From Escherichia coli (GTDB lineage: Bacteria; Pseudomonadota; Gammaproteobacteria; Enterobacterales; Enterobacteriaceae): a stretch of DNA of 64,000 nt. The DNA lies in assembly GCF_011045215.1 (NCBI RefSeq), contig NZ_CP049201.1. One strand, 5' to 3'. This document shows, piece by piece, positions 1 through 6,000 of the stretch (its first letter is position 1; every line of letters begins with the position of its first letter). Position numbers: made by a program.

Positions 1-3000
1 CAGAGTTTCACTGTCATCCGGCAAATACCTTTGATGCGATTGCGCGCGTTAAAACGATGCTGCCAGGCAATATGGAAAGTTACGAGCCGTTAAGCGTGAG
101 TCAGCGCAGCCAGCTGCGCCGCATTATGCTGTGCATCTCTGATACCTCCGCGAAGCTGGCGAAACTGCCAGGCGTCAGTAAAGAAGACCAGAACCTGCTG
201 AAAAAACTTCGCAGCGATATGTTAAGCACCATTGAGTACGCTCCGGTGTGGATCATCATGGCGGTAGCACTGGCGCTCGGCATTGGCACCATGATTGGCT
301 GGCGTCGTGTTGCGATGACCATCGGTGAGAAGATTGGTAAGCGCGGCATGACGTATGCGCAAGGCATGGCGGCACAAATGACGGCGGCAGTGTCTATCGG
401 TCTTGCCAGTTATATTGGGATGCCCGTCTCTACAACACACGTCCTCTCGTCTGCAGTTGCAGGGACGATGGTGGTGGACGGCGGTGGGTTACAGCGTAAA
501 ACGGTAACCAGCATCCTGATGGCATGGGTGTTTACTTTACCGGCGGCAATTTTTCTTTCTGGTGGGCTGTACTGGATAGCATTGCAGTTGATTTAACCTT
601 CCTGAAATGCCCGGTCCTGGCGATCGGGCATTTCCATTTTTGGCTAGTGATAACCACGCGCGGTCATAAAATCCGTAATCGCTTTTTCTGCATCAACTAA
701 CACCTGTTCCAGTGGCTGATTGGCGTCGATATCAACCAGTTGTGCACCACCAAAGGTTAACTGTGGCGTTATGGCTATCTTTCTTGCCAGCGACTCCCTT
801 TTGTGGTCAGGCTTACGCGCGCAGGCCACGTCTAGATCGACATTGAGTTTGATGACCAGATCAGGCTTATGGCTCGCCATCCAGTGAAACGCTTTACGTT
901 CCTGGCTTGCCAGCCATGAGACAAAACGACCACCTTCAACGTTAGGTGGGAACACCGTACCATCGTAAGCGCCAGGAATTTGGTCCTGAGGATAACGGTC
1001 GGTTAGAACAATTAACCCGCGACGACGACAGGCAAGCATATGACGAAAGCGCAGTAAGCGACGGGCGACAAACGCTGTAATTACCAGCGCCGGAACTGGT
1101 CCTGGCAATTTTTTTGCTGTTTTCACCTGATTTCGTTCAATTGTTTTATGTAAGGATTTTCCCATCAACGGTAATTTTGTCACTGCACGACCGACATTTC
1201 CGGCTTGTTTTCCTAAATGAACTCTTTCGGCAGCACCATATTTTTCGACAACGGTAATGAGATGTTCACACACCGTTGACTTGCCTGAACCATCGCTACC
1301 AATAACGGCAATTAATGGAGGTGTTATTGACTGCATGAATATATCCTTTAATTTAAATATCCATCCAAAATATTTATTTGGTTAATATGTTTTTATGAAA
1401 GCGTAATTCAGGTCAATGTCACAATTAACCATTGTCACAATAAGGTTGAACGGATATTCTGAGCACGGACCACGTAATATTCAATACATTATTTACTGCC
1501 GGGTTTTTCGTGAATCAACGTAATATGTCAATAATTAATTCCACGCCAGTGCGTGTTATTGCCATTGTAGGATGTGATGGTTCAGGTAAATCGACCCTCA
1601 CGGCAAGCCTGGTAAATGAACTGGCAGCAAGAATGCCAGCAGAACACATTTATCTCGGGCAATCGTCCGGGCGAATTGGCGAATGGATTTCACAGCTCCC
1701 TGTTATTGGCGCACCTTTTGGGCGTTATTTGCGAAGTAAAGCGGCACATGTGCACGAAAAGCCCTCAACACCGCCTGGCAATATTACTGCGCTGGTTATC
1801 TATCTGCTTTCCTGCTGGCGGGCGTACAAGTTTCGCAAAATGTTGTGTAAAAGCCAGCAAGGCTTTCTGCTCATCACCGACCGCTACCCGCAGGTTGAAG
1901 TGCCGGGGTTTCGCTTTGATGGCCCGCAATTGGCAAAAACCATGGGCGGTAACGGTTGGATAAAAATGTTAAGGCAGCGCGAGCTGAAGCTGTACCAATG
2001 GATGGCGTCTTATTTGCCCGTATTGTTGATTCGTCTTGGCATTGATGAACAAACCGCGTTTGCGCGTAAACCTGACCACCAACTGGCAGCGTTACAGGAA
2101 AAAATCGCCGTTACGCCGCAATTGACATTCAATGGCGCAAAGATCCTTGAACTGGATGGTCGGCAACCAGCCGATGAAATTCTGCAAGCGTCACTACGCG
2201 CAATTCACGCCGCGCTTTCCTGATCACCAAAATGGATAGGGGATGATTTAACGAATGGATGCACTACAAACACAAACTGTTATTAGTACAACCGCGCCGC
2301 AGCCCAACTACATTCCGGGGCTGATTGCGGTGGTCGGGTGTGATGGCACCGGTAAATCCACACTGACCACCGACCTGGTGAAATCGCTGCAACAACACTG
2401 GCAAACCGAGCGGCGCTATCTGGGGCTGCTCTCCGGCGAAGACGGCGACAAAATCAAACGATTGCCGTTGGTTGGCGTCTGGCTGGAACGGCGACTGGCG
2501 GCCAAATCCTCGAAAACCCAAAGCATGAAAACCAAATCTCCGGCGCTATGGGCGGCGGTGATTATGTACTGCTTCTCGCTGCGAAGAATGGCGAATCTAC
2601 GCAAGGTTCAGCGACTGGCGCAAAGTGGCGTTCTGGTGGTCAGCGATCGCTTCCCGCAGGCTGAAATTTCGGGCTTTTATTATGACGGACCGGGGATTGG
2701 CGTCGAACGTGCGACCGGGAAAATCAGCATGTTTCTGGCGCAGCGCGAACGGCGTTTATACCAACAAATGGCGCAATATCGCCCGGAATTAATTATTCGC
2801 CTGGGCATTGATATTGAGACTGCCATCTCCCGCAAGCCTGACCATGACTATGCCGAGCTGCAGGACAAAATCGGCGTCATGTCGACGATTGGCTATAACG
2901 GCACAAAAATTCTTGAGATTGATTCCAGAGCGCCCTACAGCGAAGTGCTGGAACAGGCACAGAAGGCGGTTTCTCTGGTTGCCATCGTTTCTGACCGCCG

Positions 3001-6000
3001 AAGTTTAACTTAAGGCTGGCGGGATACTTTTTACTATCAACGATAAGGTCAGGCTGAATTGGCGGGTTTTAACATCAAACATTGGTTTGCAGATGGCGCG
3101 TTTCGCACCATTATTCGCAATAGCGCCTGGTTAGGCTCCAGTAATGTCGTGAGCGCCTTGCTGGGGCTGTTGGCGCTCTCGTGTGCCGGTAAAGGGATGA
3201 CGCCCGCCATGTTTGGTGTACTGGTGATTGTGCAATCGTACGCCAAGTCGATCAGCGATTTTATTAAGTTTCAGACATGGCAGCTGGTGGTTCAGTACGG
3301 AACGCCAGCCTTGACCAACAATAATCCGCAGCAATTTCGCAATGTCGTCTCATTTTCCTTCTCGCTGGATATCGTCAGCGGCGCGGTGGCGATTGTCGGC
3401 GGCATTGCCTTACTGCCATTCCTTTCCCATTCATTAGGTCTGGATGACCAAAGCTTTTGGCTGGCGGCGCTGTATTGCACGCTCATTCCTTCAATGGCTT
3501 CCTCCACGCCGACCGGCATTCTGCGTGCGGTAGATCGCTTTGATTTGATTGCTGTACAGCAGGCGACGAAACCTTTTCTGCGCGCAGCGGGGAGCGTCGC
3601 AGCCTGGTATTTTGACTTTGGTTTTGCGGGTTTTGTTATTGCCTGGTACGCATCGAATCTGGTTGGCGGCACCATGTACTGGTGGTTTGCCGCGCGCGAA
3701 TTACGCCGCAGAAATATCCATAACGCCTTCAAATTGAATCTGTTTGAGTCTGCTCGACACATTAAAGGCGCGTGGAGTTTTGTCTGGTCAACCAACATTG
3801 CCCACTCCATCTGGTCGGCGCGTAACTCGTGCAGCACAGTGTTGGTGGGGATCGTGTTAGGACCCGCTGCCGCCGGGTTATTTAAAATCGCCATGACATT
3901 CTTCGACGCCGCCGGAACGCCAGCGGGTTTGCTGGGTAAAAGTTTTTACCCAGAGGTGATGCGTTTAGATCCGCGCACCACCAGACCGTGGTTGTTAGGC
4001 GTGAAGTCCGGTTTACTGGCGGGCGGAATCGGTATTCTGGTGGCGCTCGCGGTGTTGATCGTCGGCAAGCCGCTCATTTCGCTGGTGTTTGGCGTTAAGT
4101 ATCTCGAAGCGTATGACCTGATTCAGGTGATGCTGGGCGCAATTGTGATCTCGATGCTGGGCTTCCCTCAGGAGTCATTGCTATTGATGGCGGGAAAACA
4201 GCGCGCTTTTCTCGTGGCGCAAACCATCGCCTCAATCGGCTACATCGTATTGCTGTTCATGTTCTGTCATCTGTTTGGCGTGCTGGGAGCAGCGTTTGCT
4301 TATTTCGGCGGTCAATGTCTGGATGTGGTGCTTTCGCTAATTCCGACCTTAAAGGCATTTTTTCAGCGCCATTCCTTGCTTTATAACGCAGCCGGAGAGA
4401 AATCCTGATGATGAGAAAATATTTCCCGCTTGAGGCGAGCGAGCGTCTATTTGTTGCGATTGAAGAAGATGATGTCGTTGATGCACAGGTTAGTTTGCCG
4501 CCGACTATTGCACTAAGTTGTACCACCGAAATCATTCATGATAATTACGCGTTATGCCTGCAATTCTGGCTCAATGGCGTTAATCGTCAGGAATTACTGC
4601 GTTTAGTTCGCAAACAAGCCAAAGGCGATGAGCTGACTGCTGATGAGCGCAAACAATTTAAATACATGCGAGCGCGCTACAAGCACCTGCGTTTTGCGCA
4701 ACGGCTGTATTTAAAGAAGCATCAGGCCGGATTTTTATTCGGCAAAACGACCGTTTTTCTGGGACGTTTTCAGGACGGGTTTCGTAACGGTAAGAAAAAT
4801 ATTGTGTCGTATTACGGCAACCTGTTACGGATTTATTTAAGCTCTCCGGTCTGGTCGTTGGTGAACTATTCATTACGCCATAGCCAGTTAGAAAGCGTAA
4901 GCGGTTTTATTGCCTATCGGCAAAAGCAAATGCATGCCCTGAAAGAGATAATTGCCAAACCGCGACTAACCGGCAGGGAATTTCATGATGTGCGAAAAAT
5001 CATCAGCCAGCAGGTTTCTTATTACGACACCTTAAGATCGCTTGATCCTGAAAATAAAGAGGCGTTACAGATTTCCCGTTTCCTCGCCGCCATTAATGGC
5101 CTGATGGGGGATAAACACGACGACATGGTGGCGGATGATATGGAAAACCGCCAGTCGTATGATGCACCGGTGGCGCTGGATAGCGATATTCGCCAGCGCT
5201 TAGAGCTGCTGATTTCGCGTTTTCCGCTATAACCGGAGCAATGATGTCATCTCGTTTGATTATTGCGCTGATTATCATGCTCTTAGCCCCGGGAGTGCAG
5301 GCACACAATTTCGTCACTGGCAAAACGGTTACCCCTGTTTATATTCAGGAAGGCGGCGAGCTGCTTCTGAATAGCGACGACGAAATTCACTACCAAAAGT
5401 GGAACAGCACACAATTGGCGGGAAAAGTCCGCATTATCCAGTATATCGCCGGGCGTAAGTCAGCGAAGAAGAAGAACTCACTATTAATTAAAGCGGTTGA
5501 AGCGGCAAACTTTCCACAGGATCGTTTTCAGCCCACCACCATTGTGAACACCGATGATGCCATCTTTGGTACTGGCTATTTTGTTGTTGGCAAAATCGAA
5601 AAAAATAAACGCCGCTATCCGTGGGCGCAATTCGTTATCGACGGCAATGGACAGGGACGCGTTGCCTGGCGCTTGCCGGAGCAGAGTTCAACCATTCTGG
5701 TGCTGAATAAAGCCGGGCAAATTCAGTGGGCAAAGGACGGCAGCCTGACGCCGGAAGAGGTAGATCATGTCATTGCGCTGGCGCAGAAACTGATCAATGA
5801 ATAAAAAATTCAAAGGATTGAGGGCGTTAGTGAGATGAAGCTGGTTGAACACTACATCATGCGTGGTACGCGCCGTCTGGTGCTGATTATCGTCGGTTTT
5901 CTGATCTTTATTTTCGCCAGCTACTCCGCACAGCGTTATCTGACCGAAGCGGCAAATGGGACATTAGCACTTGATGTTGTGCTGGATATCGTTTTCTACA

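Follow-up and report, generated by a model that had tools for sequence, protein, structure and literature searches.

Described systems and the E. coli sphingolipid locus

The yghT, yghS and yghR genes of Escherichia coli encode three related P-loop proteins and lie near one end of a 64,000 bp stretch of the chromosome (contig NZ_CP049201.1 of assembly GCF_011045215.1; the whole of this stretch is called the window here). Their locus is the known E. coli sphingolipid (ceramide) locus, and there is about an even chance that the three proteins, together with a protein of predicted CHAD fold and the flippase YghQ, make up the head-group phosphorylation module of an enterobacterial-type sphingolipid pathway. 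The nearby spt, acpR, epi, aasR and yghO are known dihydroceramide genes of E. coli, and the Spt enzyme of strain BL21 has been assayed (PMC9386255). Sphingolipid loci, including that of E. coli UTI89 (shown in Figure 2B of a preprint), also encode LptF2 and LptG2, which have been implicated in sphingolipid transport in Caulobacter, where LptF2G2 works with LptB (bioRxiv 10.64898/2026.04.12.717747). The genes and their paralogy are already in the databases, and the sphingolipid core and LptF2/G2 of the locus are published. The first-pass annotation of the window regarded the function of these y-genes as not established, and we agree, since no characterisation of yghT, yghS or yghR was found in the searchable literature; searches for these genes, yghO, yghQ and E. 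coli sphingolipid returned only gene lists, one table of genomic SELEX (systematic evolution of ligands by exponential enrichment) and two phenotype tables. Also not found there were an assignment of yghT, yghS and yghR to this pathway, the three ancient orthogroups, the CHAD-fold partner and the PPK3 parallel described below. The literature searched does not describe which head group the E. coli sphingolipid carries or what the lipid does, despite the prevalence of these genes: among 5426 complete E. coli genomes the yghT/S/R trio is present in 4604 (about 85%) and the spt–aasR block in 4067, and 75% carry both trio and ceramide genes.

The Caulobacter head-group genes cpgA–D, like yghT, yghS and yghR, lie within a sphingolipid locus with LptF2/G2 and a flippase, and their pathway yields an anionic sphingolipid, which renders cells more susceptible to cationic antimicrobials and controls polymyxin sensitivity. 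In Caulobacter, lptF2/G2 have been shown to be essential only if this anionic lipid is made. The enzymes themselves are different. The CpgB ceramide kinase has a DAGK-type catalytic domain with a GGDG motif (10.1101/2023.05.01.538943) and belongs to the DAGK/LCB5 type, and CpgA, CpgC and CpgD are a CDP-alcohol transferase and nucleotidyltransferases, so that none is a P-loop protein like dTMP kinase. Homology of YghT/S/R to CpgA, CpgB or CpgC was rejected on these grounds, and family-profile scans gave no DAGK-type match for any of the three proteins. Because the Cpg enzymes belong to other families and no DAGK-type ceramide kinase homolog is seen in the annotated E. coli locus, the head-group role appears to be vacant there.

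LpxK, the lipid A 4'-kinase, is the classic P-loop lipid kinase; it phosphorylates its membrane lipid on the cytoplasmic side, before the flippase and Lpt steps, which is the kind of position considered here for the trio. YghT/S/R are nevertheless not LpxK-like or ABC-type ATPases, as they have no matches to these families and their fold is that of nucleoside monophosphate kinases.

The crenarchaeal polyphosphate kinase PPK3 (Saci_2019/Saci_2020) is built from a catalytic and a regulatory subunit, both of them exapted dTMP-kinase paralogs whose genes share an operon with that of a CHAD protein. The paralogs have lost the residues that bind dTMP and possess a basic cleft for polyphosphate; in the regulatory, inactive one the DRX arginine is replaced (PMC12995831). 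CHAD domains are specific polyphosphate-binding modules (10.1101/567040). The E. coli module resembles PPK3 in its side-by-side dTMP-kinase-fold paralogs with a CHAD protein in the same operon, in the loss of dTMP-binding residues with the nucleotide site kept, and in the suggested heteromeric action. It differs in having three paralogs instead of two and in being embedded in a lipid synthesis and export locus. As far as comparison of sequences and gene neighborhoods can tell, the yghTSR module seems to have a PPK3-like architecture without being a member of the PPK3 family.

Three paralogous P-loop kinases

The yghT gene (bp 644–1336, minus strand) encodes a 230 amino acid protein and is divergent from yghS (bp 1510–2223, plus strand; 237 amino acids), which is the first gene of a plus-strand operon and is followed after 31 nt by yghR (bp 2255–3013, plus strand; 252 amino acids). 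The coordinates of all three open reading frames (ORFs) match those of the first-pass annotation exactly, and the RefSeq annotation of a 99.5% identical E. coli chromosome agrees on the gene calls. Their products had been called paralogous on the strength of a common GxDGxGKST P-loop and DR(Y/F)PQ motif; both motifs are indeed present in all three, and the pairwise BLASTP alignments are near-full length, extending far beyond the P-loop (YghT/YghS 37% identical, E 1e-54; YghT/YghR 34%, E 3e-47; YghS/YghR 43%, E 2e-62). The genes had further been said to flank a flippase/permease operon; since yghS and yghR are the first two genes of that operon and yghT is divergent from it, they do not lie on both sides.

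The P-loops of YghT, YghS and YghR are GSDGSGKST, GCDGSGKST and GCDGTGKST, respectively, the DR motifs are DRYPQ, DRYPQ and DRFPQ, and RKPDH is a third invariant motif common to them. All are strongly basic, with isoelectric points of 9.6–9.9 (9.85 for YghT; 9.4–9.9 if the CHAD-like protein is included). An AlphaFold model of YghS is confident (pLDDT 91.4, pTM 0.87), the fold of the three proteins is that of a thymidylate-kinase-like P-loop kinase, and the best fold matches are thymidylate kinases. No transmembrane segments are present in the E. coli proteins; some close relatives have N-terminal ones.

The three proteins are members of the thymidylate kinase superfamily and yet not thymidylate kinases themselves. 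They and their clades share the GxxGxGK[ST] P-loop and DR[YFH] clamp of canonical dTMP kinase (PF02223/TIGR00041), but differ from it in having extra helices between strands 2 and 3, in their strongly basic character and in being three co-conserved paralogs inside a lipid locus. They score 24.6, 24.6 and 32.0 bits with TIGR00041, the NCBIfam dTMP-kinase equivalog, against a cut-off of 83.25, and 20.1, 19.4 and 26.8 bits with PF02223 (Thymidylate_kin) against a cut-off of 27. A family profile of 47 members, searched against solved structures, matches thymidylate kinases with E 7e-11 over the P-loop, the DRY strand and the lid, and the alignment ends at DRYPQ; in the stretch that follows DRY, a conserved, family-specific PQxE(V/I)PGFxxDGP sequence stands in place of the dTMP-binding segment. 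Canonical thymidylate kinase identity was rejected on these two grounds, the scores below curated cut-offs and the replaced segment, in line with the earlier expectation of something other than canonical nucleotide kinases. By naming yghT and yghS "dTMP kinase", RefSeq has likely over-annotated them.

Three old orthogroups

A scan of one genome per species yielded 79 comparison loci, the best matches to YghS, which are rich in Enterobacterales. Beyond that order, trio loci occur in other Gammaproteobacteria (Carnimonas, Rhodanobacter, Luteibacter and other Lysobacterales), Betaproteobacteria (Nitrotoga, Sulfuritalea, Gallionellaceae, Rhodocyclaceae), Alphaproteobacteria (Sphingobium, Sphingopyxis, Novosphingobium, Acetobacter), Myxococcales and one Planctomycetota bin. 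Distant relatives served to root a neighbour-joining tree of 237 sequences, which resolves a monophyletic T clade of 72 members, an S clade of 78 and an R clade of 73 together with one mislabelled sequence; each clade is marked by a distinct signature, and all keep the P-loop lysine, the DR arginine clamp and RKPDH. Of the 63 loci that are 15 kb or longer, 56 contain all three orthogroups, and 55 of 81 loci show the arrangement T(−)S(+)R(+).

Several fusions join members of the trio. S and R form a single ORF of 484–492 amino acids in two Candidatus Nitrotoga loci (L048, at about bp 10,001–11,460, and L055) and in a metagenomic protein (P0121), and a T-like domain is joined to an S/R-like domain in proteins of 432–509 amino acids (P0121, P0122 and P0124 are fusion examples). 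The three genes had been thought to reflect a local triplication; instead, T, S and R are three old orthogroups spread across proteobacterial classes. From the cross-class clades, shared gene order and fusions it follows that the triplication is old, and the sequences indicate that the three copies are under selection. They appear to be catalytically competent and probably work in contact with one another.

More distant relatives number 1271 at E ≤ 1e-10, and many of them are about 500 amino acids long; in the few of these that were checked, an N-terminal part with weak NTP_transf_5 similarity precedes the kinase domain. Among the distant relatives (examples lie within P0163–P0270, e.g., P0214, P0268 and P0256), the kinase domain is fused to a MOP flippase (P0214, P0268), to a GT4 glycosyltransferase or to an NTP_transf_5 domain. 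These domain combinations suggest that the wider family is tied to surface glycolipid or polysaccharide export.

Conserved neighborhood

When all ORFs of 78 loci were clustered, the commonest neighbor of the trio was yghQ (57 of 78 loci), which in the window (bp 3059–4408, plus strand) encodes a 449 amino acid, Wzx-like flippase of the MOP superfamily (Pfam Polysacc_synt, E 8.8e-11; NCBIfam MOP flippase). Its stop overlaps the start of an unnamed gene (bp 4408–5232, plus strand) for a basic protein of 274 amino acids, present in 53 loci. The E. coli protein has no Pfam match; 5 of 17 relatives match the CHAD family (PF05235; best E 1.1e-5), and the protein family has invariant His, Arg and Lys residues. 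The ceramide genes follow in frequency, with spt in 50 loci, epi in 48, aasR in 43, acpR in 40 and yghO in 28. The lptF2 and lptG2 genes are each in 37, and ytfJ is in 35 loci, all of them in Enterobacterales. In 47 of the 63 loci that reach 15 kb, spt is no more than 10 kb away, and 52 have a sphingolipid marker of some kind. The 11 long loci without a nearby marker are mostly from Sphingomonadales, whose sphingolipid genes have been reported as scattered, or from Acetobacter; Sphingobium and Sphingopyxis have a compact S-R-T-yghQ-CHAD unit, and Acetobacter has S-R-T-yghQ.

Loci from outside the enterobacteria carry additional lipid-related genes, namely an LpxO-type Asp/Arg acyl hydroxylase (18 loci), two groups of PAP2 lipid-phosphate phosphatases (14 and 8 loci), a PEMT-like methyltransferase (11) and a DUF2147 protein (8); examples of such accessory genes are L043 bp 11,533–12,291, L052 bp 7562–8125, L076 bp 7126–7815 and L073 bp 8491–9261. 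In 16 loci a gene of the DgkA family adjoins yghR or yghO (L002, L004, L015, L016, L018, L020, L024 at bp 11,512–11,871, L026, L032, L033, L035, L038, L040, L041, L057 and L077); the hosts are Serratia, Pantoea, Sodalis, Rosenbergiella, Tatumella, Carnimonas and an unclassified Enterobacterales metagenome-assembled genome. Since its product is only 40–46% identical to E. coli DgkA, this lipid-kinase paralog is specific to the locus, and it is a candidate ceramide kinase.

The K-12 deletion and mutant phenotypes

In K-12 MG1655 (NC_000913.3, bp 3,124,000–3,137,000; comparison locus L084) an IS5 element (insH9) replaces the region that corresponds to about bp 4100–12,100 of the window, and with it the 3'-end of yghQ, the CHAD-like gene, ytfJ, lptF2, lptG2, spt, acpR, epi and aasR; yghT, yghS, yghR and yghO are kept. 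A transposon screen in K-12 that gave 50 vancomycin-resistant mutants found insertions in yghQ, yghR, yghS and yghT, in the same list as mla, waa, opg, lpoB, tolC and wecA (PMC9278758). The Keio yghQ deletion doubles the chlorhexidine minimum inhibitory concentration, and two of three lines adapted to chlorhexidine had yghQ mutations (PMC8170033). The yghT phenotype is not a polar effect on yghQ, yghR or yghS, since yghT is divergent from the yghS operon. These uncomplemented screen data tie yghQ, yghR, yghS and yghT to one envelope-related function.

Possible role in sphingolipid head-group phosphorylation

The first-pass annotation suggested that the three kinases may phosphorylate a lipid or head-group intermediate rather than a nucleotide. 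A substrate of this kind is favored because the conserved neighbors of the trio are all lipid or envelope genes; the phosphorylation itself we infer, and that the trio phosphorylates an envelope lipid or its head group has at least an even prospect and perhaps a rather better one. YghT/S/R would then be phosphotransferases of the thymidylate kinase superfamily recruited to a lipid pathway. In the proposed sequence of steps, ceramide would be made by Spt, AcpR, AasR, Epi and YghO and converted to ceramide-1-phosphate by a DgkA-type lipid kinase (the in-locus paralog in many genera, the housekeeping DgkA in E. coli). The trio, acting in consecutive steps or as a hetero-oligomer, would add phosphate to this existing phosphate at the cytoplasmic face of the inner membrane to give a pyro- or oligophosphate head group, and the CHAD-fold protein would hold the phosphate chain; YghQ would flip the resulting anionic lipid, and LptF2G2 would pass the product towards the outer membrane.

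The chemistry of thymidylate kinase is the addition of a phosphate to an existing phosphate, that of dTMP. A lipid-phosphate acceptor is favored because of this phosphate-on-phosphate chemistry, the DgkA-type kinase already encoded in many of the loci, the CHAD partner and the recurrent PAP2 phosphatases, and the presence of the CHAD-fold protein in the operon points to phosphoanhydride or polyphosphate chemistry, as in PPK3. That the product actually carries phosphoanhydride-linked phosphates is nonetheless doubtful. The fullest version of the idea, a lipid-anchored oligo- or polyphosphate built on ceramide-1-phosphate or a similar lipid, held by the CHAD protein, flipped by YghQ and exported to the outer membrane by LptF2G2, is if anything a shade more doubtful still; in it the trio would build the chain, either with one paralog for each elongation step or as a heteromeric processive enzyme.

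If the head-group role is correct, the cargo of enterobacterial LptF2G2 would be explained, and the recent finding that thymidylate kinase paralogs have been recruited for polyphosphate chemistry would be extended; if the product is an anionic surface lipid, it should bear on susceptibility to cationic antimicrobials, of which the vancomycin and chlorhexidine results in K-12 give a first hint. A lipid-anchored oligophosphate would be an undescribed class of bacterial surface lipid, made in most E. coli strains, and thymidylate kinases would then have been exapted for phosphate-chain chemistry a second time, independently. The assignment of yghT, yghS, yghR, yghQ and the CHAD-fold gene to one module is directly testable in E. 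coli.

A number of observations weigh against the head-group role, or against its phosphoanhydride form. The sphingolipid of E. coli is itself not described in the literature that was searched. K-12 lacks spt, acpR, epi, aasR and the CHAD-like gene, so either the substrate is not ceramide alone or the effect of the K-12 mutations reflects an aberrant side activity; the K-12 ygh phenotypes are derived from screens and are uncomplemented, and many yghQ variants beside IS5 may be mapping artefacts. The assignment of the 274 amino acid protein to the CHAD fold comes from a predicted fold and the weak Pfam matches in relatives, and is best called putative. The resemblance to PPK3 is also incomplete: the DR arginine is kept in all three paralogs, no PPX, SixA or Pst gene is annotated in the E. 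coli locus or among the annotated recurring neighbor families, and the P-loop is the only part of the Sulfolobus tokodaii cPPK3 homolog (2plr/5h70) that the family profile matches (E 9.4e-5). Finally, the co-occurrence counts are not an unbiased sample, because the loci were picked by their match to YghS and are rich in Enterobacterales.

The most serious alternative is that YghT/S/R are plain hydroxyl kinases that make mono-phosphorylated lipids without phosphoanhydride bonds, and that the CHAD-like protein is otherwise employed. Each would then act on a different hydroxyl, at C1 or C3 of the long-chain base or at position 2 or 3 of the N-acyl chain, or else on a sphingoid intermediate of its own. 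The lipid neighborhood fits such enzymes equally well, the LpxO-like acyl hydroxylase of 18 loci could supply an extra hydroxyl, and the E. coli locus has no other kinase. Against this, the P-loop aspartate and DR clamp are of the thymidylate kinase type, a type linked to acceptors that are phosphates, many loci already encode a DgkA-type lipid kinase of their own, and both the CHAD-fold partner and the PAP2 phosphatases would be left unexplained; we consider hydroxyl kinases unlikely.

The PPK3 parallel could also be taken at face value, in which case the trio and the CHAD-like protein would form a soluble polyphosphate kinase, or a polyphosphate-dependent nucleotide kinase, whose link to sphingolipids is indirect, through energy or phosphate supply or through regulation. 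E. coli already possesses PPK1 and PPX. The locus lacks the PPX, SixA and Pst neighbors, and a flippase, LptF/G paralogs and lipid enzymes accompany the trio in nearly every locus. The MOP flippase fusions, the membrane-anchored homologs and the envelope phenotypes of the K-12 mutants likewise speak against it, and the sequence affinity to cPPK3 is confined to the P-loop. A soluble enzyme of this kind is improbable.

It is less probable again that the three proteins are non-catalytic or regulatory ATP-binding subunits that energise or gate YghQ or LptF2G2, with one or two of them possibly pseudo-kinase scaffolds. The locus encodes no ATPase for LptF2G2, PPK3 provides a precedent for an inactive regulatory paralog, and the fusions suggest physical association; yet every catalytic motif is kept in all three clades across the classes, the proteins fold like nucleotide or nucleoside monophosphate kinases and not like an ABC ATPase, and Caulobacter LptF2G2 uses LptB. 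Extra dTMP kinases, as the RefSeq names of yghT and yghS, the weak Thymidylate_kin matches and the fold matches to thymidylate kinases might suggest, are almost certainly not what these proteins are, given the sub-threshold scores and the missing dTMP-binding segment.

Organization of the region and the remainder of the window

The start of the window corresponds to the pitB–glcC region of a non-K-12 E. coli chromosome and is 99.5% identical over 12 kb to strain PapM-32-1. The plus-strand operon consists of seven genes, yghS, yghR, yghQ, the 274 amino acid ORF, ytfJ and the LptF and LptG paralogs, with intergenic distances of −4 to 45 nt. The YtfJ-family protein (bp 5241–5804, plus strand; Pfam YtfJ_HI0045, E 1.7e-59) has a hydrophobic, signal-peptide-like segment at residues 1–19. 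It is followed by the paralogs lptF2 (bp 5835–6905, plus strand; "lptF" in RefSeq) and lptG2 (bp 6902–7981, plus strand), which overlap by 4 nt; the RefSeq product name "LPS export ABC transporter permease LptF/LptG" (LPS, lipopolysaccharide) for bp 5835–7981 is misleading, as these are sphingolipid-locus paralogs and not the essential LPS genes.

Convergent with this operon on the minus strand are the RefSeq-annotated spt (serine palmitoyltransferase; bp 8016–9188), acpR (specialised acyl carrier protein; bp 9188–9436), epi/cerR (NAD-dependent epimerase-family reductase of ceramide synthesis; bp 9468–10,382) and aasR (AcpR-specific acyl-ACP synthetase; bp 10,379–12,067). They are followed on the plus strand by yghO (bp 12,472–13,614; also annotated in RefSeq, and ECD_02850 in PMC9386255), a homolog of the bacterial ceramide synthase/N-acyltransferase (aca, CC_1154).

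The divergent, AT-rich region between yghT and yghS (bp 1337–1509; GC content 0.40 in the interval bp 1001–1500) presumably contains both promoters. A promoter and terminator scan of bp 500–3200 gave no more sites than shuffled sequences, and no promoter is claimed for this reason; one weak sigma-70-like match (bp 1432–1460, plus strand) is no more frequent than in shuffles. At about bp 1417–1443 a perfect 11 bp palindrome, ATTGTCACAAT, is separated by 5 bp from a near-copy, AATGTCACAAT, and this could be an operator. The palindrome is kept only in Escherichia, Hafnia and Citrobacter amalonaticus, and because of this limited conservation we build nothing upon it. An FlhDC site is listed for the same intergenic region in a genomic SELEX paper (PMC9962212).

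The rest of the window, from about bp 13,600 to 64,000, is ordinary E. coli core and accessory sequence by the annotation of a near-identical strain; it includes glcC, glcDEFGBA, sslE with the type II secretion gsp cluster, tRNA-Phe, speC, nupG, mltC, mutY, ansB, gshB, galP and metK.

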